IMG/VR virus record: IMGVR_UViG_3300028888_000002
Strand: one strand, 5' to 3'
Source: a virus
Lineage: Duplodnaviria; Caudoviricetes
Length of the DNA stretch: 64,000 nt
Positions 8,655 to 57,990 of this stretch are shown one piece after another. Position 1 is the stretch's first letter. Every line of letters begins with the position of its first letter. Under the pieces are notes generated by a model, which saw only the letters and a list, made by a program, of their open reading frames with translations, did no database searches and had not been told where the DNA came from. Made by a program: the position numbers and the translations under genes.

Positions 8655-9587
8655 TTAAATCATATCCAATTCTTTCATAACGCTGCGGGCTTCGTCGGGC
8701 GTAAGGTCGCCAGGGTCACGGGGGTTCCCTTTAGCGTCAAGCCCAAATTCAGCAGCACACACTTCAACGGAGCAGCCACAGGCTGAAATATCCCTGGCGT
8801 ATTCACGGGCGTGTTCCTGGGCTTCGGGTTCGGGGTCAAACAGGAACACCACTTCTTTCCACATAGAAATCAAGTTCACCTGTTCACGGGTAAGGGAAGT
8901 CCCGAACGTTGCGACGGAGCCTGGACCCATACGCCATTGGTCAAACACGCCTTCCACGACCACGATACGGTCCTTGTTTCGGGCAAGTTCGGCACCATAC
9001 AGCAGGTGCTTATGGTGGACCACGGCTTTATCCACGGGGCAGCACTTGTAGCGTAAATCCTGCATTCCCGTATAGTCACGCCCCTGGAACGTGCAAAGGT
9101 TCCCCCAAACGTCGTAAACGGGGATTATGACACGGAAACGAAAGTCAATCCCTTGCCAATATCCAATATCGGTAGTCCCCAGGATTCCGTGATAGAACTC
9201 CAATTCTTCGGGGTCAAACTTTCGGACTTCGCTCAAATAGCGACGGTGGCATTCCTTTAACGGCTCGCCTGGAAGCGTGATACTCTTTACGTTAGACTTG
9301 TGCGTTTGTTCCGCTTGCAGAAACGGATTGATACCCTTTGAATACTTCTGTATAAGCTGCCGTGCCGTGTCCATAGGGATATGGGCAGCAAGCGACACAG
9401 CCTTTACAGGGTGCCCGCCTTTGCAACGCCAACATTGGTAATCCCCTTTAGCTATACCAAAAGAACCGTGGTTACTATGGTCCGAACAAAAGGGGCACTG
9501 TATGTTAATCCTACCAGGTGAGCAGTTTTTACCTTCATCCCAATACGGCACATTAAGGTCAGTGAATAAACTTTTCCAATCAATCAT
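8655..9587 (-). CDS. DNA primase (zinc finger + TOPRIM)
   Basis: CPFC..H..CWRC Zn finger, RVIIPVYD..G....FQGR, VVVEGVFD TOPRIM, DPGDL. Confidence 0.9.
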   Translation of the reverse strand: MIDWKSLFTDLNVPYWDEGKNCSPGRINIQCPFCSDHSNHGSFGIAKGDYQCWRCKGGHPVKAVSLAAHIPMDTARQLIQKYSKGINPFLQAEQTHKSNVKSITLPGEPLKECHRRYLSEVRKFDPEELEFYHGILGTTDIGYWQGIDFRFRVIIPVYDVWGNLCTFQGRDYTGMQDLRYKCCPVDKAVVHHKHLLYGAELARNKDRIVVVEGVFDQWRMGPGSVATFGTSLTREQVNLISMWKEVVFLFDPEPEAQEHAREYARDISACGCSVEVCAAEFGLDAKGNPRDPGDLTPDEARSVMKELDMI

Positions 9588-34809: not shown

Positions 34810-34858
34810 CCGCTAAAATAAGTTATATTTCCTATTAAACAACTAGCAGGACACTATT

Positions 34859-35380
34859 ATGCCTAAACTGAAAATACGCCTACACGAATCCCACGGCTCT
34901 ATGAAAGTTTGGGCTGTCACGTTTGACAGCGAAGACCAGGCTAACGAAGAAGACTACTATCTTCGTGACGGTTGGGGCAGCGAATTGAATACAGCCGTAT
35001 CGGGCAACACCCTTTATGCGGACGGCAGCAAAGCCGAACAAATCTTAAAGGAATGGTTCCCTGGAAAAGAAATCCAGGTCGTAGCTGCTCCGAGGGACGT
35101 GGAACAAATGCTTCTCGGCAATTTCACCGAAACCCTGGGCGAGAGCAAAAAGAAAGAAGACGCTGCGTGGGAACCGCCCGCCCCCGTCAAAATCAAGACA
35201 CTCAAAAAAGACGACCTGTTCACCTTGAAGCCGATTGAGAACCCGAAGGAATCCCAGGTGTGGTGCTTCCAGGGCTACGACCGCACTGACAGGACCTATT
35301 GGGCTATCCGTTGGGACAACATCAGCGTAAGCCGTGAGTTTAAGGGCGACAAGGACGTTTACACGGAATTTAACTTCTAA
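34859..35380 (+). CDS. two-domain putative internal head protein
   Basis: N-terminal MPKLKIRLHES; domains joined by GESKKKE. Confidence 0.65.
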   Translation: MPKLKIRLHESHGSMKVWAVTFDSEDQANEEDYYLRDGWGSELNTAVSGNTLYADGSKAEQILKEWFPGKEIQVVAAPRDVEQMLLGNFTETLGESKKKEDAAWEPPAPVKIKTLKKDDLFTLKPIENPKESQVWCFQGYDRTDRTYWAIRWDNISVSREFKGDKDVYTEFNF

Positions 35381-35958
35381 TGCAGACACTATACGTTCCG
35401 AAATATGGCATACACTATCGGGTGAACCCGAAGAACCCCTGCGAATTGCAGTGGTCCAAAAAGCCGTTCGGTCCTATGACTGCGTGGCAGAAAGCCTACA
35501 CGTTCAAGCGACCAATCCGTGCTTTGGACATTGACGACGAAACGGACCAGGGCGTTGTCGTTTTGAATGACAGCACGACCTACGTCGGTTCGGGCGTTCG
35601 TGTTTGGGGCAAGAAGTTCTATACTGCGGGTTCCCGCATTTACAGCCTATACGCAATAGGGGAAAGCAAAATGACACGAAAGCTGACAATCAAGGTCCAC
35701 GAAAGCACCGCTGAAAATATACCCGACGCACTTAAAAACAAGCTCCGCAACGTTATTGGCTATGAATACGATAACGGCAAATGCGTAGCGTTTGATTTTG
35801 AGCCGACGCACGAACACAATATCGTTTTCCTTTACGACGACAACGGGACCATATTGGATTACGTCAATTTCGGGGACAACTACGACGCTGCAAAGTATCT
35901 TTACGATATGACCGCCAGGGACATTAAGGCGGGCAGAAAAGTTAGCAACCACCTGTAA
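35380..35958 (+). CDS. two-domain putative internal head protein
   Basis: Internal GESKMTRKLTIKVHES. Confidence 0.6.
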   Translation: MQTLYVPKYGIHYRVNPKNPCELQWSKKPFGPMTAWQKAYTFKRPIRALDIDDETDQGVVVLNDSTTYVGSGVRVWGKKFYTAGSRIYSLYAIGESKMTRKLTIKVHESTAENIPDALKNKLRNVIGYEYDNGKCVAFDFEPTHEHNIVFLYDDNGTILDYVNFGDNYDAAKYLYDMTARDIKAGRKVSNHL

Positions 35959-35970
35959 GGGGGCGAATTT

Positions 35971-36291
35971 ATGGCAAGTATGAAAATCAAAGTCCACAGC
36001 ATTTCCGAAGACAAGGGCGACGTAGATTTGGACGCTATGATGTCGGAGTTCAAGCAAGTTCTCGGCAACGACTACAAGCTGCGTGGTTACACGCAGAACA
36101 CCAAATATGAGCAGCAGCTTGTGATTGAAGTAAAGGGTGTCGGTGAATTTTTCTGTGGCTACGCATTAGTTTACAACGGTGGCAGATTCAAGGTCCGCAC
36201 CTGGGACGCTGACACTAACTTTGACTTGGACTGTGATATGACGCTTTTCAAGAAACTTCAAACAATCTTCTACAAGTATTGCGGGGGCTAA
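35971..36291 (+). CDS. putative internal head protein
   Basis: N-terminal MASMKIKVHSISE. Confidence 0.6.
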   Translation: MASMKIKVHSISEDKGDVDLDAMMSEFKQVLGNDYKLRGYTQNTKYEQQLVIEVKGVGEFFCGYALVYNGGRFKVRTWDADTNFDLDCDMTLFKKLQTIFYKYCGG

Positions 36292-36294
36292 TCC

Positions 36295-36537
36295 TTGAAC
36301 ATTGAAGACTACCCAAAACCGATAACCATTGACGGACTAGCTCCGTTGCACCGCAAGCGACACACAGCGGGGACAAAAGAAACCTGCTGTATTTGCCACG
36401 AACGCAAGACATATCGCTACATTGGGGGTAAGCCCGTATGCAGCTATTGTTCTAGCACAGAACAAGCGGAAAGAATGGGACCAAATTGGAGCAGCAGGAT
36501 TATTCGTAAAGAGGACCTGGTGTATGCTAACAATTAG
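36295..36537 (+). CDS. small zinc-finger protein
   Basis: CCIC..VCSYC. Confidence 0.5.
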   Translation: MNIEDYPKPITIDGLAPLHRKRHTAGTKETCCICHERKTYRYIGGKPVCSYCSSTEQAERMGPNWSSRIIRKEDLVYANN

Positions 36538-36581
36538 TGAAAATAACGGTCACACTGTTCGTTTAATCAAGGACTAAACAA

Positions 36582-37166
36582 ATGCCACGCAATCTTGACG
36601 ACATAAATTTTCTCAAAGACAGGCATTCCCTTAATGTGATTACCCGTCTAGCCGACACGCAGGTGTATGTCGCCTTGAAGCATAGTATCACGATTGTAGG
36701 CTACAACGCAGAAGTTTACCTGCCCGTGATTTCCGAGGGCACGGAAAACTTCCCGATTGTGGACCGTGGGGACAGTTCCATTTACAGCGGTATGCCCCTG
36801 GATGGTGCCTACAACCAGGAAGACAGGACGGGTTCCGTGTATAACGAAAAGGACCACGAATACCGTTACAAGACCGAACCCGATTTTATCGCCCGCATAG
36901 CATTCCTGGACCCGCAGGAACAGCCTGTAATCCGTGGCGAAGAAATGTTCCTGGACGAAGAAAACACGGCATACACGCTCAAAAACACTAGCGGTCACAG
37001 AAACTATTGCCCAGGCGATATTGTGTTGCATTCCAAACTACTTGTGCATTACGGTGACGAGGACTTGTCGTATTTTGTCAAGAACATTAGGACGCTCCGC
37101 AACCCGAACGCCAAAAAAGAGAGCGAAGAATCGCTCATTTACCTGGACCTTGTGTTGCACGTCTAG
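36582..37166 (+). CDS. hypothetical protein, possibly head-completion/neck
   Basis: 194 aa with AAGGA RBS; function from context only. Confidence 0.5.
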   Translation: MPRNLDDINFLKDRHSLNVITRLADTQVYVALKHSITIVGYNAEVYLPVISEGTENFPIVDRGDSSIYSGMPLDGAYNQEDRTGSVYNEKDHEYRYKTEPDFIARIAFLDPQEQPVIRGEEMFLDEENTAYTLKNTSGHRNYCPGDIVLHSKLLVHYGDEDLSYFVKNIRTLRNPNAKKESEESLIYLDLVLHV

Positions 37167-37215
37167 CGTCAAATTGTTATTTTAGGTTTTGTATAACCAT
37201 AAGCAGAGGTTGAAT

Positions 37216-37623
37216 ATGTCTTTACAGGATATAGCTAACAGAGCAAAAAGCAAACAGAACACTACTCTTTTGGAAGACATTATCTGTAGTGCTTCGGAAA
37301 AGTTGAATGACGCTTTCAGCGGTTTGGAAGACCTGCTTGACGAAGACGCTAGTGACAGCGTGTGGGCTACGCTTGACAAGTTGCCCGACGGTCCTGTAAA
37401 GCAGGAACTTGAAGAACAGGTTGGTCGCCTTTACAAGCTAGTCAATGGCGAACTTAAAGAAGCCGACGACGACCTGTCCGCTATCGCTGAAGAAGTCAGT
37501 TGGGACAGTAACAGCGTTGACACCTGGAAAGACGTTGTTATGGCTGCACTTCCCGCAGGTGCGTCGGCTTCTATGGCTAACGACGTGGAAGCAGCCCTTG
37601 AAAACATTAAGAGCGTTTACTAA
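37216..37623 (+). CDS. acidic helical hypothetical protein
   Basis: GAGG RBS; start MSLQ. Confidence 0.65.
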   Translation: MSLQDIANRAKSKQNTTLLEDIICSASEKLNDAFSGLEDLLDEDASDSVWATLDKLPDGPVKQELEEQVGRLYKLVNGELKEADDDLSAIAEEVSWDSNSVDTWKDVVMAALPAGASASMANDVEAALENIKSVY

Positions 37624-37640
37624 TCAGTGAGGACACCACT

Positions 37641-38924
37641 ATGGGTTTCAAAATCAAAGTAAAGGAAGGAAACGGCTACGCAGGTGGTAAGGGCTTTCCG
37701 AAGAAAAACGGAACGTATATCATTACTGTAAAGGACCTTAAACCAGGACTTCACAAAGGTCCATATTCTGTTAAGGCACGTTGGTCCAACTACGCTATGG
37801 ATTGGGTTCTTGAAGACCTGGACGAAATCCCGCATTTGGACAGCTCCGTAATGGTTATTGACTACAAGCCGTTCAACCAGGAAGAATATGACCGCCTGCG
37901 TGAACAGGAACAAATCCGTGACCTCGGTTCCGTCCGCAGAAAAGAACCGTTTGACATTCCCGTGGCAAAGGCGTTCCGTGGGGAATCTTTCTACTCCCAG
38001 GGCAACCGTGACGGTCGCAAGTATGCCCCGATGAAGACCCAGGAATCGTTCCCGAACCGTGCAGCGTTCCTGTCTTACAAGAAAGGCTACAACGAAGCCC
38101 TTGACGGCATTTACGAAGAAACGGGCGACCCCGACTTTGACAAGGAAGTTAAGGACCTTAAATCAAAGCCTGGTATGGACAGCCTTGTTTCCGCTTTGGA
38201 CGGCTTGACCGACGAACAGCTTGCCTTGCTTGAAAAGGGCTTTGGCGACGGTGAATATGCCGAAAAAATGAACACTGCCGTAATGGATATTAAGGCAAAG
38301 GACCTGCACCCGACGCAGAACGAAATTGACGTTGGCAAGTCCCTGTCTTACCAAATCAGCGGTAAGAACCCCGACCAGGTTAAGCAAATCCTTGATGGCG
38401 GTCCTGTCACCATTAACTTGCCGTTGGTCGTCTATGACTACAACGGAACGTATTACATAGTGGACGGGCACCACCGTTGGTCCCAGGTGTTCTTGCTCAA
38501 CCCGAACTGCCAAATCAACAGTATCGTTTTCAAAAATTCCGCAGGCGACACCGCCCAGGACCCCGCAGATATGCTGCGTGACTTCCAGGGTGCTATCGCT
38601 ATCGCAAACGACGGTGAAGTTCCGCAAAGCACCGTCAAGCCTGGAATGAATATGTTTGATTGGTCGTCCGACCAACTCCGTGACTACCTGGAAGAAAATA
38701 TCCAGGACGGTATGATTTCCGCTTACCAGGATTTCTACAACTCCGAAATTGACAAGGAAGACATTGAAAATTCTGTTGTCAGTAACGCAGGCTTGATGAA
38801 GAAATCCAATAAGCCTATCAATAACGCCCCTAGCCGTGCTGTTATGCCACAGACCGACACGGGCGTTGACAAGACGGGCGTTGCGGGTCTTGAAATCGCA
38901 AAGAAGGGTATGACCGACCTTTAA
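37641..38924 (+). CDS. modular protein with ParB/Srx-like domain
   Basis: N-terminal MGFKIKVKEG; DLHPTQNEI..PLVV...YIVDGHHRW. Confidence 0.75.
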   Translation: MGFKIKVKEGNGYAGGKGFPKKNGTYIITVKDLKPGLHKGPYSVKARWSNYAMDWVLEDLDEIPHLDSSVMVIDYKPFNQEEYDRLREQEQIRDLGSVRRKEPFDIPVAKAFRGESFYSQGNRDGRKYAPMKTQESFPNRAAFLSYKKGYNEALDGIYEETGDPDFDKEVKDLKSKPGMDSLVSALDGLTDEQLALLEKGFGDGEYAEKMNTAVMDIKAKDLHPTQNEIDVGKSLSYQISGKNPDQVKQILDGGPVTINLPLVVYDYNGTYYIVDGHHRWSQVFLLNPNCQINSIVFKNSAGDTAQDPADMLRDFQGAIAIANDGEVPQSTVKPGMNMFDWSSDQLRDYLEENIQDGMISAYQDFYNSEIDKEDIENSVVSNAGLMKKSNKPINNAPSRAVMPQTDTGVDKTGVAGLEIAKKGMTDL

Positions 38925-38937
38925 TGGAGCGTGTGAT

Positions 38938-40014
38938 ATGAACCAACTTGAACAGCTTGAAGTTTATCTTAAACACCTGGGTCGTCCCTATGTGATTAAG
39001 AACGCTGACCCGAAAGCGTTCAACAAAATCCCCTATACCGACGAAAACGGCAAGGACAACGAAGTTGAATACACAAAGGTCGTCACGATTGACAGCCCCG
39101 AATCCGTAAAGGATTATTACCCGAAGATTGACCTGTGGTATATCCCGTCTTTGGATAAATTCGTAGAACACGGAAGTGCTACGGATGGTGAAACCAACGC
39201 ACTGCAAGCAGACACCGCAAGGGACATCCTGGACTATATCGGGTATGTCTATTGGGAAATGGAAGACCTGGGCGACCAACTTGACAACTCCACCAAAAAC
39301 ACCGAAAAACGTTTTAGCAATTCCAAAAAGGAAAGCAGTATGAAAACCTACGAATGCTCTATGCAGAAGAAAATTGAAAGCCTCGCCAAAAAGCGTTCCG
39401 AAAAGCGGACCGTGACGAAAAGCTACGACGTTTACAAATACGACGAACTTTCCGACGACGCAAAGGCAAAGGTCAAGGATTTGTTCTTGCAGTGGCGTGG
39501 CGAAGACGGTGACATTTTCAAGGAAGACTGCGAAAACAGCCTTGCAGAAATGTTCCCGAACTCCGATTTGAAAGTGCAGTATTCCTTGACCTACTCCCAG
39601 GGCGACGGCTTCAACACCTACGGCACCTTGAACATCAAGGACCTGCTCAACGCAGATTTAAGCAAATACCCGCTCAACGATTCGGGCATTACCGCACCTG
39701 CAAACAAGGACGCTATCCTTGCTGCTTGCGACAAGGCTGACGTTTACGACATTGACCTTGAAGAAAACCGTCGCTACGGCTATTCTTTGGCTGACCGCCT
39801 GGAAGTCGTCCCGAACAACGACGAAGACCTCACCGACGAAGACACCGCCCTGTTGAGCGACCTTGAAAACTTTGCCCGTGAAGTAATGGAAGCAATCAAT
39901 AGCAAGTTTGAAAAGAACGGCTATGACTACTTCTACGAAATGAGCGAAGAAGATGTCCGTGATATGGCAGACGCAAACGACTACGAATTTACCGAAGACG
40001 GTGAATTAGCCTAA
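38938..40014 (+). CDS. modular protein with C-terminal 'YxFDELSDxAK...SQGDG...YEFTEDG' domain
   Basis: Domain common in mobile-element leading regions; linker KKESSMKTYECSMQKKIESLAKKRSE. Confidence 0.7.
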   Translation: MNQLEQLEVYLKHLGRPYVIKNADPKAFNKIPYTDENGKDNEVEYTKVVTIDSPESVKDYYPKIDLWYIPSLDKFVEHGSATDGETNALQADTARDILDYIGYVYWEMEDLGDQLDNSTKNTEKRFSNSKKESSMKTYECSMQKKIESLAKKRSEKRTVTKSYDVYKYDELSDDAKAKVKDLFLQWRGEDGDIFKEDCENSLAEMFPNSDLKVQYSLTYSQGDGFNTYGTLNIKDLLNADLSKYPLNDSGITAPANKDAILAACDKADVYDIDLEENRRYGYSLADRLEVVPNNDEDLTDEDTALLSDLENFAREVMEAINSKFEKNGYDYFYEMSEEDVRDMADANDYEFTEDGELA

Positions 40015-40024
40015 CAGGTGAGAA

Positions 40025-41047
40025 ATGCCACACAAAGCGTTCCTTAAAAAGAAGTCACTTCTTGACAGGTTCAAGGACGACCACGAACGGACGGGCTTCA
40101 TACAGTCTGCCCGTGCGAAGCATACCTGGAACAATCCGCTTACCAGGCGTAAGCGGACAAAGGAACTCAACGGGTGGATTAAGTCGTTCGCAGGCAAGAA
40201 CCATATACGCAAGCTGTCCAGGTTCAACGCACAGCAAGCGGGGCGGTATGAATCCTTGCAGGTAGCTCACCCCGACGTGGAGTTTGACTGCCTGCGTTAT
40301 GCCGACACGCTTGAACTGCCGAACGGTGTATGCGTGAAAGTCTATCCGACAATCCGCTGCCCCCGCAGGTGTGCGTTTGTTTTCCGTGTAATGGGCTTCG
40401 GTGAAGTGGACCCCGACGTGAACAAGAATGCGGGAAAACTTAACTATGCCATACACGGGTATTACCCCGTATATGGTCTTGAACGCCAACCGTCCGAGGA
40501 ATTTGACATTTACTGCGACGACGTTAGCGAACTACAAAAATGGTCCAACTGCAACGGTTGGGGTATGGGTGTAGGTCCGTCGGCTTCTTCTATGGAAGTT
40601 GCCAGGGAAGTCGCAAAGGGCAAAGAAACTATGAAGAACGAAAAGGCTATACCCATAAACTTCAATCTGTGCTACACGTTTGACCTTGACGACGAACTTG
40701 CTAAAAAGTTTACCGACGGTGCCAAAGGCAATAACAAAATATCCGTCCAACAGAACGACGGATATACCGACGTTTTCTTTGATAAACTAGACGACCTCGT
40801 TGACTTCCTGGACGAAGTTGCAGTTGGGGCAGATAGTGACAAGGTTGACAATTCGTTCCGTTATGCAGTCTTGAATTGCAAACGCAGCAGGATTGACCCT
40901 GCCGACTTACAGCCGTGTGCCGACAAGTATGGCGTAAAAACAAAGATTGAAAAGTCTATGAACCAAAACGGTTTACCCGAATACGAAGTCACGCTATATA
41001 AGGACTTTGAAGACGTGTCCGCAACGCTTGTGGACTTTGGATTTTAA
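40025..41047 (+). CDS. modular protein with highly basic N-terminus (prohead-core-like)
   Basis: Basic first 75 aa ending RYES, followed by acidic domains. Confidence 0.55.
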   Translation: MPHKAFLKKKSLLDRFKDDHERTGFIQSARAKHTWNNPLTRRKRTKELNGWIKSFAGKNHIRKLSRFNAQQAGRYESLQVAHPDVEFDCLRYADTLELPNGVCVKVYPTIRCPRRCAFVFRVMGFGEVDPDVNKNAGKLNYAIHGYYPVYGLERQPSEEFDIYCDDVSELQKWSNCNGWGMGVGPSASSMEVAREVAKGKETMKNEKAIPINFNLCYTFDLDDELAKKFTDGAKGNNKISVQQNDGYTDVFFDKLDDLVDFLDEVAVGADSDKVDNSFRYAVLNCKRSRIDPADLQPCADKYGVKTKIEKSMNQNGLPEYEVTLYKDFEDVSATLVDFGF

Positions 41048-41059
41048 CGGAGGCTATCT

Positions 41060-42850
41060 ATGGCTAAAATTACTGTAAACAGAAAAGTTTTTAAGGGCTT
41101 TAGCTCCGAAAGCAAAAACGAAACAAAGTTTGACCCGTCGCAATATGACTATTTCAAGGCAAGCTACACGCTTGACGGCACCAACCGTGTAAAGAACACC
41201 AACGGTATCGTTGACGCACAGGGAACGCTTGAAATGGCACAGCGACACGGTGCAACCAACCTTAAATTGGTAGGTGTCAAGGACGGCACCGAAACCGATA
41301 TTCCGTTGAGCGACGTAGGTATTTCCGAAAGCAAGGACGAAGCTATGTCCTTGAAAGGTTTCCTTGAAACCCTGGAAGAAAAACTTGTAAAGCAGTTTGA
41401 CCTTGACGAAGAAGAAGTGAAGAATTACCTGGACACTCACACCCAGGAAATGCAGGAACTTTTGGACGACAAGGAATTGTCCCTCAAGGAAAAGGTGCTT
41501 TTCGTGCGTAGCGAAATCACGGGCGAAAAGGACGAAGCCAAAGAACCCGCAGAAGAAAAGTTGGGCTACGAAAAGGGACATAAAAACAGCAAAGGCGAAA
41601 ACGCTCCGTGGGTAATTCGCAGCCACGAAGACAACCGCATTCTTGCGTCGTTCGCAAAGAAAACAGACGCAGAGGAACATTTGAAGCGTATGAAACAGTA
41701 TAGCAAACAGGAAAGTATGTCCGCTGACGAACTTGACAAGTATATCAAGGACGTAAAGTCCTTGCTCAAATCCAAGTATGGTATGGACTTCAACGACAAG
41801 GACACCTGCCGTCTTAACGTCGGTTGGTTGGAAAAGTTGGACGCTATGTTCTACCAGGGCAAACCCGTTGAAGACGGTGCAAAGGAAGTCGCAGCATTCT
41901 GTGGCTACAACAAGAACGAATCCAAGCAGTCCGAAGCGAACGGACCTTTTGACGCACCTATCAAGGATTGGTATATGGGTGCATACAAGGAAGACGACCT
42001 GGGCGACAGGCTCAACGGAACGTTCAAGGGTGCCCTCCAAACCTTGATGCGTGGCGACGACATTTACGACTACATTGGTGTAGGCGACTCCCTTATTCGT
42101 GAACGCCTGTTTAGCAAACTTGCGGAAATGCTTGACGTTGACTACGACGAAATCTACAACGTGTGGCTTAACGAGGGTGCTGCAAGCAACGAACTGACTG
42201 CCAAAATTAACAAGATTGGCATAAAGCGAACAAGGACTATCCCGCCCACTATCAAGGACAAGGTGAACAAACTAGGTAGGGGCGTATTACCACCGAAAAT
42301 CGTAAAGGTTACGGGCGAATCCAAGAAATCCGAACGCCTGTTCAATAAAGCCGAAATGGAAAAAATCGCATTGTCCGAAGCGTCTAGCCTAGACAACTAT
42401 CGCAAAGACGTTATTTCCGAACTTGCGGTGTCGTTCCATTATGGTGAAGACGGGGCAACCAAACTAGCCAACAAATACAGTGATACTATAAACGACGCTT
42501 ACGTTGAAGGCGAATCGCTCCCGTATGAAACGGCAAGGCTAATCGCCCGTCAAGACGGAAACGGCTACGCCAACGAAAGCAAGAAACAGGAATCCCGTAA
42601 GTCCGAAGTTCGCCTGGAACTCATTGACACAATCGTGGTCCCGAAGTGGCTGTGGGAAGCATACAACTTCGGAAACGAATACGGTGAAGACCTGGACGAC
42701 CACGAACAGAACATTCTTTCGGAGTTCAAGGAAAAGTATGCCGATTGCCACCTTGACGACGAAGACGAAGAATCCTACTTCAGCAGCTATAACGACTTTG
42801 ACAGTTATGGCGGTCAGTGCTACACCGTAAAGGTGTATAAGGAAAAGTGA
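41060..42850 (+). CDS. polyprotein-like modular protein (about 7 small domains)
   Basis: Linkers SSESKNE, ISESKDE, KQES, NESKQSE, GESKKSE, NESKKQESRKSE separate recognisable small phage domains. Confidence 0.75.
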   Translation: MAKITVNRKVFKGFSSESKNETKFDPSQYDYFKASYTLDGTNRVKNTNGIVDAQGTLEMAQRHGATNLKLVGVKDGTETDIPLSDVGISESKDEAMSLKGFLETLEEKLVKQFDLDEEEVKNYLDTHTQEMQELLDDKELSLKEKVLFVRSEITGEKDEAKEPAEEKLGYEKGHKNSKGENAPWVIRSHEDNRILASFAKKTDAEEHLKRMKQYSKQESMSADELDKYIKDVKSLLKSKYGMDFNDKDTCRLNVGWLEKLDAMFYQGKPVEDGAKEVAAFCGYNKNESKQSEANGPFDAPIKDWYMGAYKEDDLGDRLNGTFKGALQTLMRGDDIYDYIGVGDSLIRERLFSKLAEMLDVDYDEIYNVWLNEGAASNELTAKINKIGIKRTRTIPPTIKDKVNKLGRGVLPPKIVKVTGESKKSERLFNKAEMEKIALSEASSLDNYRKDVISELAVSFHYGEDGATKLANKYSDTINDAYVEGESLPYETARLIARQDGNGYANESKKQESRKSEVRLELIDTIVVPKWLWEAYNFGNEYGEDLDDHEQNILSEFKEKYADCHLDDEDEESYFSSYNDFDSYGGQCYTVKVYKEK

Positions 42851-42936: not shown

Positions 42937-43359
42937 ATGGGTATGGAAAATCAGCCTGCTACCATTTCACAAAACGAGCTAGACCAAATAAAGTCCCGCC
43001 TAAACCGTAAAATGCTAAACATTACGGAGTATTCCATAGACGGTATGGAAGCCCTGTTGCATTCTATGGACGATATTGACAACGCTATCTTCGGGAAAGT
43101 GAACCTGGACGAAGCGTCGGTCCGTGAACTCATAGACCTGTCAAAGCAGCGTAACGAATCGTTTAGGGTTCGCCTGGACTTTATGAAAGCCCTATCGGGT
43201 CACACGGTAGATACTTCCAACGTGGAAGTTGAGAAGCCCGCAGAAAAGATTGACACGACGGTTATTTCCGAAGACGACGCAGAACGAATCAAGGCTGAAA
43301 TCCTAAAACGAAACGGCAACGCCCCGCCCAACGTGCAGGACGCAGTGATAGTCAAGTAA
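42937..43359 (+). CDS. hypothetical protein, candidate small terminase
   Basis: 140 aa helical; size and context only. Confidence 0.45.
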   Translation: MGMENQPATISQNELDQIKSRLNRKMLNITEYSIDGMEALLHSMDDIDNAIFGKVNLDEASVRELIDLSKQRNESFRVRLDFMKALSGHTVDTSNVEVEKPAEKIDTTVISEDDAERIKAEILKRNGNAPPNVQDAVIVK

Positions 43360-43379: not shown

Positions 43380-43422
43380 TTTAACAATACCTGTTGACAT
43401 TCAGCAGGTATTTTATTATATT
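43380..43422 (+). promoter_or_regulatory. sigma70-type promoter with inverted-repeat operator
   Basis: TTGACA-N17-TATATT; AATACCTG..CAGGTATT. Confidence 0.8.
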
Positions 43423-46060: not shown

Positions 46061-46147
46061 TAACAGATTATTTGTTATATTTCCCTACAAGAGCGACAGC
46101 CACGCATATAGCCCCGACCCTTACGGGGTAAAAGGAAGGTTACACTT

Positions 46148-47950
46148 ATGGCTGAAAGCGGACTTGCAGGATTAAGCACGGCAGACTTGTATAAGGCTGC
46201 TGCAATAGCCGAGGGCTATGAATCCGTCCCTGTTGACATTGAAACGTTCATTAACGACCCGTTCTACATTGGCGAAATCTACGGTGAGGGTCGTGTCTAT
46301 CCCTATTGGTTGGACAAGCTGAAAAAGCTGTTCCCGAACCCGCTTTACAGCCCGTTCATTGAAGTCTGCATTACGGGGTGTATCGGTGCGGGTAAGTCCA
46401 CGGTGTCCATTATCGGGGTCCTTTATGACCTGTATAGGGTGACGCTGCTGAAAGACCCGCACAAGAAATTCAAGCTAATACCGACCACGCCTATCGTGAT
46501 TACGCTCATTACCGCAACTATGGACCTGGCGGGTGCCGTCCTTGCGGACCAACTTATAGACGTTATTGGCTGCTCCCCGTATTTCCGTTCAAAGCTGCTT
46601 CCAGGCAAGGGCGACAAGATAGATGAAGAAATGTTTCCCCACCACGTAGGTATCGCCTACGGTTCCCGTATGCGTCACTCTTTGGGCAAGGCTGTCATTG
46701 GGGCTATCATTGACGAAGCGAACTTCCAAAACGCAGTAGCGGACCAGGCGGTGCAGAACTACAACAGCATCCGTCGTCGTATGTTTTCCCGTTTTATGAC
46801 TAAAGGCGGTGAAGTGCCCTGCCGTATGTGGGTCGTGTCGTCCCGAAACGAAAGCACGTCGTTCCTTGAAAGCCATATTGACGCAGAACGCAACAACCCG
46901 AAAGTCGCTATCTTTGAGCCTGCCATTTGGGAAGTCCAGGCACACAAGGGTATTTACAGCGGGGCGACCTTCCCCGTCTTTATCGGTTCCGACATTGAGC
47001 AGCCGAAAGTCATTACAAGCGACGCAGAACTTGACGACTACCAGGGTCGTGTTATCCAGGTCCCCGTTGAATACCGAAAGGACTTTGAGAACAATTTGCC
47101 TGGTGCCTTGCAGGATTTGGCGGGCGTGGCTACCCGTAACGGTGTGAACCTAATCTACAACGTGGAAGCCCTGGATAGGTCAATGTGCCTGGAAAACTGT
47201 ATGACTACGGACGAACTGCACTTGACCTTGAACGACAACGACCAAATCGCTGACTTCTACAAGGGGAACCTTCCGAAAGGCAAGTATTACGTCCATTTGG
47301 ACGGTGGCTTGCGTAGCGACCGTTTCGGCTTCGCTATGAGCCGTGTCACGGAGCAGATAACGGTCACGACCACTTCTGCCGTTAGCGGTGTGGAAGTGAG
47401 CAAGATTAGCCCCGCAGTAGAAACCCCGCTTGTGTTCGGTATCAAGGCGTTGCCAGGGTCCGAAGTCCCGTTTTGGAAGGTCCGTGTGTTCCTGGTTTAC
47501 CTGCGTAGCCAGGGCGTGAACATAGCCTTGATTACGTGCGACGGCTACCAATCTGCCGATATGATGCAGCTACTCACGAAGTTGGGATTTAACGTGAAAT
47601 ACGCTTCTGTGGATAAGACCAAAGACCCGTATTTGAAGTTGAGCAGCAACATTCTTTTGAGTTTGATTAAAATGGCGAAGTCCCGTATTTTGAGGACCGA
47701 ACTAATCAACCTGCAAAACCTACCGAAGAAGATAGACCACCCTGCTACAATCGTCGTGGACGGGAAGCAGGTTGCGGGTGGCAAGGATATTGCGGACGCT
47801 GTGGCTTCTAGTTCCTACGAAGCTATCTGTGCTTCTATGACCCTGGGTGCGTCGTCGCTGCTCCAAATGCAGCAGTCAAAGCCTACCCAAATGACTATGC
47901 ACCAACGCCAGGAATACGTTATGGAACACTTTTTTAAAATGAAAAGGTAG
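46148..47950 (+). CDS. terL: terminase large subunit
   Basis: YPYW, Walker A TGCIGAGKST, Walker B IIDEANF, nuclease YVHLDG, ITCDGYQS, KIDHP..KDIADAV. Confidence 0.92.
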   Translation: MAESGLAGLSTADLYKAAAIAEGYESVPVDIETFINDPFYIGEIYGEGRVYPYWLDKLKKLFPNPLYSPFIEVCITGCIGAGKSTVSIIGVLYDLYRVTLLKDPHKKFKLIPTTPIVITLITATMDLAGAVLADQLIDVIGCSPYFRSKLLPGKGDKIDEEMFPHHVGIAYGSRMRHSLGKAVIGAIIDEANFQNAVADQAVQNYNSIRRRMFSRFMTKGGEVPCRMWVVSSRNESTSFLESHIDAERNNPKVAIFEPAIWEVQAHKGIYSGATFPVFIGSDIEQPKVITSDAELDDYQGRVIQVPVEYRKDFENNLPGALQDLAGVATRNGVNLIYNVEALDRSMCLENCMTTDELHLTLNDNDQIADFYKGNLPKGKYYVHLDGGLRSDRFGFAMSRVTEQITVTTTSAVSGVEVSKISPAVETPLVFGIKALPGSEVPFWKVRVFLVYLRSQGVNIALITCDGYQSADMMQLLTKLGFNVKYASVDKTKDPYLKLSSNILLSLIKMAKSRILRTELINLQNLPKKIDHPATIVVDGKQVAGGKDIADAVASSSYEAICASMTLGASSLLQMQQSKPTQMTMHQRQEYVMEHFFKMKR

Positions 47951-47971: not shown

Positions 47972-48913
47972 ATGAACGTTTGCGATTTAGATATTGAACT
48001 TTGGAAGTTTCGGGACATTTACTTTGACGAGGGACCCCACGTCTATACGGACTCTTTGGGGACCAAATACACGTCCGTCACCACGTTCGTGCAGCAGTGC
48101 GGTGAACACCTGGAACTTGAAAAATACGTGGGCGAGTTCTCACTGCAAAGCGGTGTCCCGAAGGACGACCTGTTTGCTATCTTTGACGGCAGTTTTAAGG
48201 ATTTGTCGCTTCCCGTAATTTACGAAATGCTTACGTGCGACAGGGCTGACGTTCCCGAAGACTTGCTGAAGGCTTTGGTTGCCCGTGACAAGTATAAGTT
48301 CTGCGACATTTTGAAATGGCGTGAAATCGCACAGAACTACGCCACGAAGCACAATATGAACGTTGCCGACGTGCAGGCTATGTGGGACAAGAACAAGAAC
48401 GAGGCTGCGTCTATGGGAACCCAGGTTCACGCCTATATGGAAAACCTGTGGCGACGTAAGCACTACGAACCCGAAGTTCCCGTGGGTGACTACGAAACCG
48501 TCCGAAAGAACGGGTTGGAAGCCTACAAGTATCTGTGCCGTCGGTTCGTCCCTATCCGTAACGAATTTATTGTCTATAAGCCCGAATGGGCTTTGTGCGG
48601 GACGATTGACTTTCTGTGTTGGGACCGTGCCGACGATTGCATAGCCATTTTGGATTGGAAGACAAACAAGAAAATTGACAGGGAAAACCAATATCGCAGG
48701 TGCGTGGGTCCGCTTGACGGATTGCCCGATTGCAACTTCACGCACTATTCTGCTCAATTAAGCACCTATAAGCTGCTCATAGAGCGAATGACAAACCTGC
48801 GTGTTGAAGAATTGGCGTTGGTCCACTTGAAGCGTGACGGTTGGGAGTTCATACCCTGTATGGACTTGAGCGTTGAAATAGGTGCCTATTTGGGCAATAG
48901 AAACAAGGGGTAA
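47972..48913 (+). CDS. PD-(D/E)XK exonuclease
   Basis: YTSVTT, GTQVH, CGTID, ILDWKTN, Y..QLSTY. Confidence 0.85.
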   Translation: MNVCDLDIELWKFRDIYFDEGPHVYTDSLGTKYTSVTTFVQQCGEHLELEKYVGEFSLQSGVPKDDLFAIFDGSFKDLSLPVIYEMLTCDRADVPEDLLKALVARDKYKFCDILKWREIAQNYATKHNMNVADVQAMWDKNKNEAASMGTQVHAYMENLWRRKHYEPEVPVGDYETVRKNGLEAYKYLCRRFVPIRNEFIVYKPEWALCGTIDFLCWDRADDCIAILDWKTNKKIDRENQYRRCVGPLDGLPDCNFTHYSAQLSTYKLLIERMTNLRVEELALVHLKRDGWEFIPCMDLSVEIGAYLGNRNKG

Positions 48914-48918
48914 AGATT

Positions 48919-49323
48919 ATGGCAGTTTCAGCCGAAGTAATGAAAGAAGTAATGCAGGAAGCAGCCGACTACTGCGGTGTTGAAATCGGGGACTTGTCGG
49001 ACGGCTTCCATACGTTCAACAGCCTTTACAGGCAGCGTTGCGTCCTGTTCGCCACGCTTGTGAACCTGTTCCCCGAACATTCCTGGAAATCCAGGAAGCA
49101 CGAAGACGGCAAGCCGTGTTTCGGGGGCGGTTGGTTCGTTGTCTGCATAGACACGCCCGACGGTCCGTATTCGTATCACTACGAAGACAAAGATTGGGAT
49201 ATGTTCAAGTGCAGGTCCCTGGAACGTGCGAAGCCGTTTGACGGTCATACGGACGAGGACGTTGGCAGGCTCTTGTCGCTTGCTATGCAGACGTTTGTCA
49301 AGCATACCCAAAATCTTGCCTAA
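48919..49323 (+). CDS. WDGH-type conserved phage protein
   Basis: SDGFHTFNSLY..R..LF, SWKS..H.DG, SYHY, FDGHT. Confidence 0.7.
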   Translation: MAVSAEVMKEVMQEAADYCGVEIGDLSDGFHTFNSLYRQRCVLFATLVNLFPEHSWKSRKHEDGKPCFGGGWFVVCIDTPDGPYSYHYEDKDWDMFKCRSLERAKPFDGHTDEDVGRLLSLAMQTFVKHTQNLA

Positions 49324-49385: not shown

Positions 49386-49772
49386 ATGGCAACAAAGCGT
49401 GATAGGGTAAATCGTGTAAAGGGCTTGGTCTATCTACCGATAGACGGTTCCCGCCTGGTTAAAGGCGAGCGGGTCACTTTGACGCACGTCCAGGAAGCTG
49501 ACATTTTCCCCGACGTGATTAAGGACCCTATGGAAATGCGGGAGCCGATAAATGGCGACGCTGTTGGCGACGCTATCTTTGACGCTATGAAGGAACCGAC
49601 CTATATTCCCGAAGTCATAGGGGACGACGAGTCGGACGAAGAAAACCCTATCGCTTTGGGATTTGAAGACGGTAACTTTAACATTTTGCTAGACACGGGT
49701 GCGTCGTCCTACGACGACGATTACAGCGAAGACGATTACCTGGTGTGCGACCCTATGGAGGGCGAAACCTAG
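49386..49772 (+). CDS. acidic hypothetical protein
   Basis: 128 aa preceding fibre gene. Confidence 0.6.
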   Translation: MATKRDRVNRVKGLVYLPIDGSRLVKGERVTLTHVQEADIFPDVIKDPMEMREPINGDAVGDAIFDAMKEPTYIPEVIGDDESDEENPIALGFEDGNFNILLDTGASSYDDDYSEDDYLVCDPMEGET

Positions 49773-49785
49773 ATTTGAGGTTGTT

Positions 49786-52236
49786 ATGGCAGCGAAGAAA
49801 GACATTGCAGTGACACGAATTTATCAGTTGGAACAGGGCGTTTACAACGGCAATTCCTATGTTGTGATTGATGACGGTGTTCGTAACCATAAACTCAAAA
49901 AGTTGCCGTTGTCGCAGATTAAGGGACAGAAAGGCGACAAGGGTGACAAGGGCGACAAGGGCGATACGGGTGCCCAGGGTCCGCAGGGTGAACAGGGTCC
50001 GCAGGGCGTTCAAGGTGAACAGGGCGTTGAGGGTGTTTCCCCTACTGTGACTATTGAATCTGTTGCCCCGTCGGGTGATACTCCGCAGGGCTACGAAGTC
50101 ACGATTACCGATGCCGAACACCCGCAGGGACAGACTTTTGAAGTCCACGACGGACGCACTTCTTTTGCGGATTGGCGTAGGGCTTACGCCAACCAACTTG
50201 CTCCGTATGCTGACAATAAGTTTGATTTGAATAGCAGTTTGGTTTCTTACGACGGTAGCAGCGACGATATTTATGTGGACGATGACGACCACAAGCTGTA
50301 TTTCAAGGCGGGTGTTTATGTTGTTATCGCCACGGTCATAGTTGAAAACACGTCCACTGCAAGTGCCTACAAGGAAATATCCGTGAATCCTGGTTCGGGT
50401 ATTGCAGGTCTTATTTGGCAGCAGGATTGGTCCATTGGTTCCAATAAGGAACGCAGGACGCTCGCCTACATTCTTGACGTTGCTAACGACGATACGCCAC
50501 TTACTCTTACGGTTGACGGCTTTACCGACGTTGAAGGTCATACGGAACTTTCCCGTATTGACTGTTATAAGTTGGCGGGTGCCCTTGAACCTGGTGGCGG
50601 TGGTGGTGCTTCGGTCACGATTACACCGACGTTCGGGAATGGGGTAAAGATTGCGGACTTCACCATTAACGGAACTAGCGGGGTTATCAATATCCCGCAT
50701 ACGCACGTTATGTGTGACGCTACGGGTTCGGGTGCTACCGACGAAAGCGTGTTACCGCAGGCAGGCTCCGAAGATACTTTGTATTTTGTCAAGGAATCCG
50801 TTTCGTTGGGAAGCAGGTCGCTTGACAGGTATAACATTTACATTTGGCGTGACGACAAGGTTCCTTCGCAGGACCCGTCCGCAGTATTCCCCGATAACTC
50901 AAAGTATGTTCTTGTGGACGAGGCTTCGTATTCTTCCACTGAAATCATTTCTATGTTCGGTGACGTGGGTGCTGAAATAGCAGCTATCGTTGAAAGCCGT
51001 ATTCTTTATACGGTTGAACTTGGGTCTATCACGACTCAAAAGCAATTTGAGTTTAATGGTTCTGTTGGCGGTTTTGTTTGGACTTTGTTTAACCCCAATA
51101 TGGATATGGAAGTCGTGGCGGGTGATACCCCTACGAACCTTGCGTTTGCTACTACGGATAATATCCCTATTAACGAATCGGGTAAGTATCTGTGTATCGG
51201 TATTTACGAATATGACCTGGAACATAACACGTTTTCTTATGTTGCTGACACGGGAAATATCGTTTCAACGATAACTGACAAGGGTGCAAGTAACAAGGGC
51301 TTGCAGGTTGTTCAAATAGCTAATGTGAAGCAGGACACTACAACGGGTGAATACAAGCAGCGTTTGTTGTCCGCTAAACTTTATGCGGTTGTGTTTGCGT
51401 CCAACATTAACCCGTTAAAGGTTGCGGGTTGCCCGTTTGAAAACGCAATCTACACTGTTCCGTCGTTGGGTTTGGCTAACTTAAATTATTCAATAGACCC
51501 CTCGGCTATGGCTACTAGCTTGCCGTCGTTTAGCGGGACTGAAGGCGATACACCGAATGGTTCCTTGTCGGAATTTCATATCTTTACGGCATTGACTAAC
51601 GTGCAGATTGTCCTACCGCCTGCACCTCCGCCACCGCCCGTCCCGACTTCCCCGTTTGTGACAATGCCCGTCACTACTTCTACGGGTGATTACACGGTAA
51701 ATCCGACGAAAGTTACTTACGATTCTAGTGAGTTTGACAACATTACTTTGGACACGTCTAGTGGCGTTCTGTTGCAGAAGATTGTTCCGCAGGCTGATGT
51801 CAATATCACCGCCTGGACGATTGTTGATACTAGCCCGAACGCTGTTACGAACAACCCGCCAGGTGAAATGGTCTATGACGAGAACTTCCAGGAAATTTGC
51901 GGGCATAACGCCACGTTGCAGGCTTCGCTAGACTCCGAGGGTGTTATGCCTGGGACGGGAAACCAGGCGTATGTGCATAGGTTCGTTGTTGACAACAATC
52001 AATCCATTCAGTTGTTGGCGGGTCATACCTATTGGTTCCCGATTATTTCCAATCCGAACCTTGCTGAATGGTGGTATGCTACCGTTTCGGAAAATGGCAC
52101 GACCGTGTATAATCCGACAACGAGCGGTGCTGCTATTAGCAGCTTGTATTACTTTGCTACCGAGGGTATCAAACAGACTATGCCCGTCGCACGTATGACC
52201 CTGGAAGACGACCAAAACAATACTTACGATATTTAA
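49786..52236 (+). CDS. collagen-repeat tail fibre protein
   Basis: (GXY)n GDKGDKGDKGDTGAQGPQGEQ, GVSPTV, poly-Gly and poly-Pro linkers. Confidence 0.8.
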   Translation: MAAKKDIAVTRIYQLEQGVYNGNSYVVIDDGVRNHKLKKLPLSQIKGQKGDKGDKGDKGDTGAQGPQGEQGPQGVQGEQGVEGVSPTVTIESVAPSGDTPQGYEVTITDAEHPQGQTFEVHDGRTSFADWRRAYANQLAPYADNKFDLNSSLVSYDGSSDDIYVDDDDHKLYFKAGVYVVIATVIVENTSTASAYKEISVNPGSGIAGLIWQQDWSIGSNKERRTLAYILDVANDDTPLTLTVDGFTDVEGHTELSRIDCYKLAGALEPGGGGGASVTITPTFGNGVKIADFTINGTSGVINIPHTHVMCDATGSGATDESVLPQAGSEDTLYFVKESVSLGSRSLDRYNIYIWRDDKVPSQDPSAVFPDNSKYVLVDEASYSSTEIISMFGDVGAEIAAIVESRILYTVELGSITTQKQFEFNGSVGGFVWTLFNPNMDMEVVAGDTPTNLAFATTDNIPINESGKYLCIGIYEYDLEHNTFSYVADTGNIVSTITDKGASNKGLQVVQIANVKQDTTTGEYKQRLLSAKLYAVVFASNINPLKVAGCPFENAIYTVPSLGLANLNYSIDPSAMATSLPSFSGTEGDTPNGSLSEFHIFTALTNVQIVLPPAPPPPPVPTSPFVTMPVTTSTGDYTVNPTKVTYDSSEFDNITLDTSSGVLLQKIVPQADVNITAWTIVDTSPNAVTNNPPGEMVYDENFQEICGHNATLQASLDSEGVMPGTGNQAYVHRFVVDNNQSIQLLAGHTYWFPIISNPNLAEWWYATVSENGTTVYNPTTSGAAISSLYYFATEGIKQTMPVARMTLEDDQNNTYDI

Positions 52237-56597: not shown

Positions 56598-56760
56598 GCG
56601 AAGGAATACGTGAGTATGTGAACTATTTAAGCGTAGAATTGCTTAAATGGATTGTTTTCGCATCAACGGGTTTGCGTGTGTCCCACTATCACTAGCGGGC
56701 ATAGTGGCAACTCCCTCAACGGTGGCTTGTTCCAAGCACACGGCTCTCTTTGACGAGCCA
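56598..56760 (-). ncRNA. putative omega-RNA of TnpB with guide ATACTCACGTATTCCTTCGC
   Basis: TnpB omega-RNAs overlap the gene 3' end and take their guide from the flank beyond the right end; 5' limit uncertain. Confidence 0.5.
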
Positions 56761-57990
56761 ATCATCAAGACTACACGGGCAGAATGAGTGTCCCTGTCCA
56801 TAGTATAACCACAACCGCACTTGTAGGTTCTATCCGCAAGCGTGGGATGGTTTATACATCCACAGGCAGGACACATCTTTGTGGTTGGTTCCCATTTGGA
56901 AATTTTGAAACTGCGACCGCTCGCTTCCAATGCGACAAGTCGCTGCTTCAATGACCCAAGACAGGATGATTGAACCTGTTTTCCAAACAAGCCCTTCTGC
57001 CACCCCTTAATCTGCTCGTCTTGAAAGTAAATTACATCATAGTCGGTCGTTAATTTGTGGTATATCTTGTTGGCGAAGTCTTTTCGTCTATTTGCCAATC
57101 TTTCATACTCACGCCTTAATTGACTCATACACCTGTAATACCGCTTTGACTTCTTCTTGTTCTTCTCAACTCCACGCTTGTTCAGTTTGCGTGACAGAAA
57201 TTTTAGATAGTCAATTTCTCGCACATCACATTTGTATTTGTCACCGTATGACGTTGTTATGGAATCCTTTATGCCGAAATCAAGACCAACGTTCTTGTGG
57301 GTAGGAATCCTTTTGGATTTCGGCAGCATAACGCTAACTTTTAAGTAATAGCCACTAGCCTTACGAACAAGTTTAGCGTCTGCTATTTCAAACTTCTCAA
57401 ACTGCTGTAATTGGTCAAGTCCGTGAACACGTAGTTTGCGGAATCCTGGAATTGTAATCCTGCACCCGTCCAGGATTTGTGTGTAGCCCGTAATGATAGG
57501 CAGGCAATTAACTTCGGATTTGAATTTTAATGCCCCGACCTTGATACCCTTCTTCTTGGCTTTTGCAAGGTTCACAATGTCTGTTCTCTTTTGGGCGACT
57601 GTCGCCCTGTGGAGAACGGACGGGAGTGAAATAGTGTCTGTTATCGGGTTCTTGTCCTTGTCGTAGTGAACTACGTTCTTATGTTCCGTGTATTTGTAAT
57701 CAAACAGGGAGATGTCTTTGCTCTTGTTGGAGAGCGATAACATATCGTTCACGACCCACTTTGCTTCCTTGAAGCATTGGGCTAACTTCGTAAATACTTC
57801 TTTCGGGTTATGCCGTATGGAAACCTTGAGTTCAAAGACACGGCAAACCTGTGTTTGCCGTCTAGCCCTTGTTTCGGAAATGGACTCCCGAATCCTGGCT
57901 TTAGTGTCTTCGCTTCTTACTGTTTCCATAGATTTGACTTAAACGGACATTTCTCAATATCTAACTCAAATATAGATTATTTTGTGGCAT
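56618..57990 (-). mobile_element. tnpB-only (IS1341-like) element, left end approximate
   Basis: Opposite orientation to flanks; right end hairpin TTTAAGC..GCTTAAA followed by TAGTTCAC; no tnpA. Confidence 0.65.
56643..57929 (-). CDS. tnpB: TnpB RNA-guided endonuclease (IS200/IS605-type)
   Basis: RuvC-I VGLDFGIK, RuvC-II YFQDE, TTKMCPACG..CGCG Zn finger, RuvC-III MDRDTHSA. Confidence 0.92.
   Translation of the reverse strand: METVRSEDTKARIRESISETRARRQTQVCRVFELKVSIRHNPKEVFTKLAQCFKEAKWVVNDMLSLSNKSKDISLFDYKYTEHKNVVHYDKDKNPITDTISLPSVLHRATVAQKRTDIVNLAKAKKKGIKVGALKFKSEVNCLPIITGYTQILDGCRITIPGFRKLRVHGLDQLQQFEKFEIADAKLVRKASGYYLKVSVMLPKSKRIPTHKNVGLDFGIKDSITTSYGDKYKCDVREIDYLKFLSRKLNKRGVEKNKKKSKRYYRCMSQLRREYERLANRRKDFANKIYHKLTTDYDVIYFQDEQIKGWQKGLFGKQVQSSCLGSLKQRLVALEASGRSFKISKWEPTTKMCPACGCINHPTLADRTYKCGCGYTMDRDTHSARVVLMIGSSKRAVCLEQATVEGVATMPASDSGTHANPLMRKQSI

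Follow-up and report, generated by a model that had tools for sequence, protein, structure and literature searches.

Modular proteins with shared leaders and Glu-Ser-Lys linkers in a large rumen phage: candidate capsid-loaded substrates of a prohead protease

Tagged genes of the locus

The locus described here lies in a 64,000-nucleotide (nt) stretch of the IMG/VR virus record IMGVR_UViG_3300028888_000002 (Caudoviricetes), hereafter the window, and belongs to a large, uncultured rumen phage with a genome of about 215 kb. It is a plus-strand transcription unit that begins with a promoter-like element at 34823 and ends in a strong terminator (43386-43412), and its tagged proteins are built of small modules that follow a short leader ending in Glu, are joined by linkers of the form Glu-Ser-Lys, or both (Table 1). 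The minus strand up to 34463 is occupied by replication genes, which encode a DnaB-type helicase, a second helicase, a clamp and an SbcC-like protein, and plus-strand genes begin at about 34600. Contigs of 210-226 kb recovered from metagenomes of ruminants and the gut carry exact or near-exact copies of proteins of the window, and searches of the locus against deposited phages by megablast and tblastn returned no match. A complete IMG/VR relative of 215,310 bp, G004, which is syntenic with the window at a nucleotide identity of about 70-75%, was used as a stand-in for the rest of the genome, and genes were called using a codon-bias model trained on the sequence itself.

A preliminary description of this DNA presented positions 34859-42850 as one cluster of modular proteins, and all the leaders and linkers that it listed were found where it had placed them. 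Its coordinates hold for the tagged genes, but not for the genes at 36295-36537, 36582-37166 and 37216-37623 or for the N-terminal half of the gene at 40025-41047, which are unmarked. The first three are members of the operon that stand outside the tagged set. The domain at the N terminus of the fourth, a protein of 340 amino acids (aa), is conserved and untagged (40025-40560, starting M-P-H-K-A-F-L), and in relatives it is fused either to the downstream polyprotein (in P0018, and in the 715-aa protein at 195252-197399 of G004) or to the ParB-like core of the 427-aa protein (in P0400); these chains may use it as an alternative head domain. Orthologs of the 173-aa protein in the relatives L001, L002 and G005 retain the leader, and the one in G005 has an ESKKSE linker and further modules. 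The modules of the 596-aa protein are joined at residues 16-22, 89-95, 155-162, 286-292, 419-425 and 505-516.

The leader has the consensus M-x-K-[LM]-[KT]-I-[KR]-[VL]-H-E over 9-12 residues, and the linker has the consensus E-S-K-(K/Q/N)-x-E. The leader core was searched as [LMF]-[KT]-I-[KR]-[VL]-[HK]-E, with the N-terminal expectation taken from its internal frequency, and the extended linker as E-[SA]-K-x-x-E, with composition-preserving shuffles as the null (200 for G004). Within the window the leader core occurs at three N-termini, against an expectation of 0.04, and at one internal junction, and there are four extended linkers, every one of them within the locus, against 0.3 +/- 0.5 in shuffles. 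G004 has 11 N-terminal leaders where 0.13 are expected and 21 extended linkers where shuffles give 1.0 +/- 1.0 (maximum 4, n = 200). The permuted tripeptides KSE, SEK and EKS showed no enrichment. Every leader ends in Glu, at residues 9-13, and the domains downstream of the shared leader are mutually unrelated.

Both AGC and TCC are used for the Ser of ESK linkers, and Leu, Ile, Val, Arg and Lys are encoded by many synonymous codons among 27 distinct copies of the leader. Judged by codon usage, leader and linker are conserved at the level of the peptide. Retention of the leader as a DNA or RNA signal is ruled out by this extensive synonymous variation. The linkers were also considered as translated relics of ribosome-binding sites, a reading that fits only the two or three junctions followed by Met and was rejected in general because the remaining linkers lack Met and their Ser codons vary.

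A second recurrent tag, C-S-M-Q-K-K-[IK]-E-S-L-[AK]-K-K, differs from the K-I-K-V-H-E leader. The 358-aa protein of the window carries it internally, separate genes of G005 and L002 carry it at the N-terminus, and it is also present in two head-module proteins of G004 (L032 7987-8382 and 13444-14442) and at positions 9221 and 9704 of L048. The resemblance to the MKTY-type tag of phage T4 belongs to this second element and not to the leader, and the likeness is probably due to chance.

Table 1. Features of the transcription unit in the window and distribution of leaders and linkers in G004. Positions are nucleotides of the window unless residues or G004 are named.
Feature	Position	Strand	Remarks
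Promoter-like extended -10, TTATATTTCC	34823-34832	+	No -35 match; 36 nt upstream of first tagged gene
173-aa protein	34859-35380	+	10-residue leader, module, linker, second module
Leader MPKLKIRLHE	34859-34888	+	Starts 173-aa protein
Linker GESKKKE	35138-35158	+	In 173-aa protein
192-aa protein	35380-35958	+	Conserved N module, G-E-S-K and Met-leader junction (35659-35706), swappable C module
Internal leader M-TRKLTIKVHES	Inside 35659-35706	+	In 192-aa protein
106-aa protein	35971-36291	+	Single module behind leader
Leader MASMKIKVHSISE	35971-36009	+	Starts 106-aa protein
80-aa gene, Cys-rich	36295-36537	+	Untagged; conserved in relatives and untagged there too
194-aa gene	36582-37166	+	Untagged; conserved in relatives and untagged there too
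135-aa gene	37216-37623	+	Untagged; neither leader nor linker
427-aa protein	37641-38924	+	Leader (residues 1-9), swappable N module (13-95), R-G-E-S junction (37965-37988), core
Leader MGFKIKVKE	37641-37667	+	Starts 427-aa protein
358-aa protein	38938-40014	+	N module, second-tag junction (39319-39393), C module (phrog_5162)
Internal element MKTYECSMQKKIES	Inside 39319-39393	+	In 358-aa protein
340-aa protein	40025-41047	+	No leader; N domain of about 170 residues
596-aa protein	41060-42850	+	Beads on a string: variant leader and seven modules
Variant leader start, MAKIT...	41060-41122	+	In 596-aa protein
Five ESK sites	Residues 17, 90, 287, 420, 506		In 596-aa protein
Variant junction GEKDE	Residue 155		Sixth junction in 596-aa protein
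140-aa gene	42937-43359	+	Untagged; last gene of the transcription unit
Terminator-like hairpin	43386-43412	+	12-bp stem and T run; ends the unit
G004 leader genes (11)	G004 37.3-52.6 kb; 191.1-192.9 kb; 208.4 kb		Seven in head module; three in locus counterpart; one at 208.4 kb
G004 extended linkers (21)	G004 35.5-55.2 kb; 195.3-197.4 kb		Head-module proteins, including the protease; counterpart protein; none elsewhere

Exchange and folding of the modules

Homologs of the 596-aa protein range from 449 to 1035 aa, and many of them are 95-98% identical over only part of their length (120 listed of 202). In pairwise comparison, cassettes of 80-130 residues are gained or lost at the junctions of this protein, with a few linker residues duplicated on either side, and 34% of similarity breakpoints fall no more than 5 residues from E-[SA]-K, compared with 8% of random positions (n = 1321 distinct). 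Its single modules gave 1378 matches in a 50%-identity library, including segments of many multi-domain proteins. The locus had been proposed to be a library of swappable modules, and its close relatives do insert, delete and exchange modules of 60-130 residues at the linkers; the proposal that the small domains resemble stand-alone proteins elsewhere also stands, since free-standing proteins of 62-127 aa are among the matches to modules of the 596-aa protein.

The same mobility extends to the leader. The T-K-F-D-P-S module is preceded by five versions of it, each ending in Glu: a leader-plus-linker of 21 residues stands ahead of the module in the window, six residues in L001, the canonical leader in L002 and G005, and an internal Met-leader behind a domain of another protein in P0018. 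From these arrangements, the leader is an exchangeable unit that is separate from the downstream fold. The N module and G-E-[SK]-K junction of the 192-aa protein are kept in four relatives, but the C module behind them is in each case unrelated to those of the other three, and every one brings an internal Met-leader of its own that ends in Glu. Glu-Ser or Glu-Ala stands ahead of the ParB-like core in close relatives, in which the N-terminal part is a bare leader or one of at least five unrelated extensions. In these comparisons a separate gene and an in-frame fusion look interchangeable, as would be expected if the junctions are cut.

An AlphaFold model of the 596-aa protein (99 sequences) contains seven well-folded modules and has a predicted template modelling score of 0.28, and therefore no fixed domain arrangement. 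Each of the five ESK sites, like the GEKDE junction and the first 22 residues, lies in or directly beside a segment with a predicted local distance difference test (pLDDT) score below 50, and the leader and the junction ahead of the core in the AlphaFold model of the 427-aa protein likewise have pLDDT below 50. The leader is amphipathic and strand-like, disordered in the models and has no known partner, features that would suit a destination different from the capsid (for instance a chaperone, a membrane or some compartment) or a degradation tag, with the linkers being cut, if at all, by some other protease. Such an address is very improbable, given that the Pfam and PHROG scans revealed no second protease or export machinery in the locus, that the leader co-localises with head genes and that the prohead protease carries the same site.

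Most modules have no recognisable family in Pfam or PHROGs. The core of the 427-aa protein matches Pfam ParBc_2 and phrog_1033 and has an invariant D-G-H-H-R-W motif (38463-38480), and the top Foldseek matches of the protein are ParB, Atu1540 and sulfiredoxin, a weak but consistent indication of a ParB/sulfiredoxin fold in the model. Foldseek searches with the model of the 596-aa protein returned nothing significant from the PDB, and only weak single-module matches to small uncharacterised phage proteins from BFVD; a protein-atlas search for module function gave no result. Module 5 of this protein recurs in proteins of 1341 and 2183 aa with LPD, ArdC-N and MPTase-PolyVal domains, which are catalogued polyvalent proteins of mobile elements. 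In the locus itself, Pfam gave no match to the catalogued LPD or MPTase domains, and neither Pfam nor PHROG searches found a metallopeptidase domain. By analogy with such proteins, the ParB-type fold and the context of module 5 fit a role early in infection, acting on DNA or on host defences (PMC5512222).

The recurrence of module 5 in ArdC-N/metallopeptidase polyvalent proteins of other elements also favours an explanation that involves no packaging. The chains would be cytoplasmic multi-domain proteins of the polyvalent type, the linkers would be spacers or recombination joints, the leader would serve expression or folding, and movement of cassettes between loci would account for the marks in the head module. 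Cassettes do move between this locus and the head module, genes often fuse and split, the promoter region can be read in more than one way and the modules are acidic, all of which agree with this explanation. It is nevertheless unlikely, if to be taken seriously, as the conservation of the linkers and leaders at the peptide level and not at the DNA level speaks against a pure recombination signal, and as the Glu that ends every leader, whatever module follows, is left unexplained.

Head module and prohead protease of related phages

The major capsid protein of G004 is of the Gp23 type (PF07068), and about 4 kb upstream of its gene lies that of a head maturation protease of 355 aa (phrog_207, 1e-20). 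The protease was located beside the capsid-protein gene and then identified through PHROGs, a quick PF03420 search of G004 and G005 having missed it. In a homolog with 81% identity, PF03420 (Peptidase_S77) matches residues 13-188 over model positions 18-197 of 198 with a score just under the Pfam cut-off, and other homologs carry precomputed PF03420 marks. The gp21-like protease that the preliminary description called for is thus represented, in close relatives, by an S77 prohead protease, and homologs of the 596-aa protein, the ParB-like protein and the protease are found together on one 224-kb contig. The BFVD entry A0A8S5L6X1, a protein of 1074 aa annotated as a prohead core serine protease, gave a weak structural match and hints that S77 proteases are fused to long extra regions in other myoviruses.

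Immediately behind its S77 domain the protease has the motif [IV]-[ST]-E-S-[KL], in which E187 and S188 are invariant in 48 homologs with 46-92% identity, and in the close clade this Glu-Ser is followed by Lys, matching the E-S-K of the linkers. The SPN3US protease gp245 cuts after Glu, prefers Ser at P1' and removes its own C-terminal propeptide (PMC10052503), the site of the phiKZ protease is S/A-x-E (PMC9026906), and related proteases cleave propeptides at several sites (PMC10052503, PMC9026906). By analogy with gp245, we infer that the protease would cleave itself at its own Glu-Ser site. An invariant Glu-Ser after the catalytic domain is left unexplained if the tagged proteins are never packaged.

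In the distant relatives L044 and L045, where E-S-L linkers were sought to accompany an E-S-L protease site, no polyproteins lie within 10 kb; L046 has a single E-S-L-E junction, and E-S-K is the linker form of every detectable homolog of the 596-aa protein. Distant relatives with the E-S-L protease site have small genes with leader-like N-termini near the protease (L046 7988-9980; L045 7066-9100), examples being M-A-M-R-I-R-V-R-E-S and M-K-I-N-L-V-S-K-T-N-E-A, and because of these the idea of a tag appears to extend beyond the E-S-K clade. The capsid proteins of five relatives have Y-E-[SNA] at about residue 61, some 20 residues before the conserved core, a position whose resemblance to that of the T4 gp23 cut is only suggestive. 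These five proteins conserve two Glu-[SA] sites within their first 65 residues, [IL]-[VL]-E-[SA]-[YF] and [KR]-Y-E-[SNA] (about residues 17-21 and 59-63, respectively, of the G004 capsid protein, L031), both of which are candidate maturation sites.

The marks were expected to belong to virion proteins, and in G004 they are indeed not spread over the proteome but confined mainly to the head module and the counterpart of the locus (Table 1). Some 300 further proteins, among them all those of the replication strand, lack the marks, which is again left unexplained by unpackaged cytoplasmic proteins. The leader genes of the head module adjoin the genes for the protease, scaffold and capsid protein, and the head region is flanked by polyproteins with ESKKSE linkers. 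Two cassettes of a polyprotein encoded beside the capsid gene recur in homologs of the 596-aa protein, one with 68% identity over 95 aa and the other with 50% over 78 aa, and the head module and this locus therefore draw on one module pool.

Four small genes with a ten-residue leader lie between the G004 protease and the scaffold and capsid genes. This position is like that of the T4 core proteins, and in related giant phages propeptides are cleaved at numerous sites and removed from the head (PMC10052503, PMC9026906), which suggests that the tagged proteins could be packaged and cut as prohead core or inner-body material, filling or shaping the large capsid before being degraded or expelled. 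A purely structural role of this kind is distinctly unlikely: a fast turnover of cassettes between near-identical phages would be unusual for structural parts, and the ParB/sulfiredoxin fold and the polyvalent module of conjugative elements point instead to action on the host or on DNA.

The head and tail genes belong to a strand block that starts with the locus, and replication genes are on the opposite strand. In G004 the plus-strand block runs from the counterpart of the locus through the record end and start to the tail and head genes at up to 93.5 kb, and the minus-strand block is filled by replication genes. The -35-less TTATATTTCC form that opens the unit also precedes the 600-aa gene at 46148 (element at 46075, plus strand), and a weaker promoter resembling the sigma-70 type lies 250 nt upstream of the element at 34823. 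The other promoters of the window consist of TTGACA in a short palindrome and TG-TTATATT (43394-43422 and 63334 on the plus strand; 34507, 28004, 23635 and 12921 on the minus strand). The layout of strands and promoters fits late expression.

With a probability of roughly 0.55, the tagged proteins are loaded into the capsid as substrates of the prohead protease, which would make them a polyprotein extension of the internal-protein system of T4. Each cassette would be a small, independently folding module that is either encoded by its own gene behind a leader or fused in frame to others via a linker. The leader would address the protein to the core of the assembling prohead, in the manner of the T4 capsid-targeting sequence, and the S77 (gp21-type) prohead protease would then cut after the Glu of leaders and linkers, such that separate genes and polyproteins would yield the same free modules inside the capsid. 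At infection the modules would exit together with the DNA. We infer all of this, from targeting and cleavage to packaging, injection and any role against host defences, from the sequences only. A more general version, in which leader and linker form a plug-in grammar, either one being sufficient for loading into the prohead and release, with perhaps 15-20 pre-made effectors per operon that are reshuffled by relatives, is put forward tentatively.

Several observations weigh against prohead loading and cleavage. Some 70 kb separate the head module from the locus, which adjoins a divergent promoter region and may be expressed early. Several genes of the operon are untagged, and the modules are mostly acidic, with isoelectric points of 4-5, whereas the internal proteins of T4 are basic. 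The residues before the linker Glu lack a consistent hydrophobic P3, unlike the L/I-x-E rule of T4. Two internal leaders retain Met behind a sequence resembling a Shine-Dalgarno site, and internal initiation or recent gene fusion, without cleavage, could explain these two junctions. Furthermore, the head module and protease are those of relatives with a nucleotide identity of about 70-75%, and not those of the genome of the window itself.

Known systems and neighbouring genes

The internal proteins IPI, IPII and IPIII of T4, together with Alt, likewise consist of unrelated, fast-evolving proteins with an N-terminal tag of about 10 residues that ends in Glu (PMC3012670, PMC9026906), and close relatives of the phage are T4-like in possessing an S77 protease and a Gp23-type capsid protein. 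However, the tag sequence is unrelated throughout, and internal tags and polyproteins with repeated linkers are present only in the system described here. By comparison of the tags, the leader is an analogue of the T4 capsid-targeting sequence and not a member by descent. The ejection and inner-body proteins of phiKZ, 201phi2-1 and SPN3US are cut at S/A-x-E by gp175 or gp245 (PMC10052503, PMC9026906), and the likeness to these systems comprises a large phage, an S77-related protease that cuts after Glu, often with Ser at P1', substrates with multiple cuts and C-terminal self-trimming. Their substrates, however, are paralogs that lose long propeptides, and not unrelated swappable modules on a fixed linker.

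Polyvalent proteins (Iyer et al. 2017, PMC5512222) also combine many unrelated domains in a single chain, are predicted to be carried along with the DNA and include a ParB-type domain. They are defined by 2-15 unrelated domains per polypeptide, a range that includes the seven folded modules of the 596-aa protein. The modules described here are much smaller and mostly uncatalogued, however, and the prohead protease would process them in trans, at a standard linker. The Dar proteins of P1 (DarA, DarB, DdrB and Hdf) are anti-restriction proteins that are packaged in the head and processed during head assembly (PMC9024508, PMC5512222), and DdrB is said to carry a ParB-type domain (PMC5512222), but P1 has no shared grammar of leaders and linkers. 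In the literature, only the precedents of T4, phiKZ/SPN3US, P1 and the polyvalent proteins were found, with no description of leader-and-linker cassette polyproteins in tailed phages.

If the tagged proteins are indeed loaded and cut in the prohead, they would constitute the first polyprotein strategy described for the virion cargo of tailed phages, in which the polyprotein logic of RNA viruses packs many small proteins into a tailed-phage head. Many unknown proteins of rumen phages would become recognisable as injected cargo by their leader or linker, and the quick exchange of modules between near-identical phages would be explained, as in an arms race with host defences. The leader and linker would also provide a compact tag-and-linker system for loading foreign proteins into capsids.

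Beyond the terminator, an open reading frame of 600 aa (46148-47950) is 74-100% identical in some 25 IMG/VR contigs and has no match in Pfam, PHROGs, NCBIfam or PDB sequences. A WDGH-domain protein (48919-49323; PF25311, 1e-37) adjoins a PD-(D/E)XK nuclease (47972-48913), and the same neighbourhood contains a collagen-repeat protein that resembles a tail fibre (49699-52236). A transposase gene (phrog_506) lies on the minus strand of the window at 56643-57929. Three long open reading frames in or near the head module of G004 (L032 8489-10240, 1047-2315 and 3924-5225) resemble this transposase by eye, and one of them sits between tagged genes and the protease.

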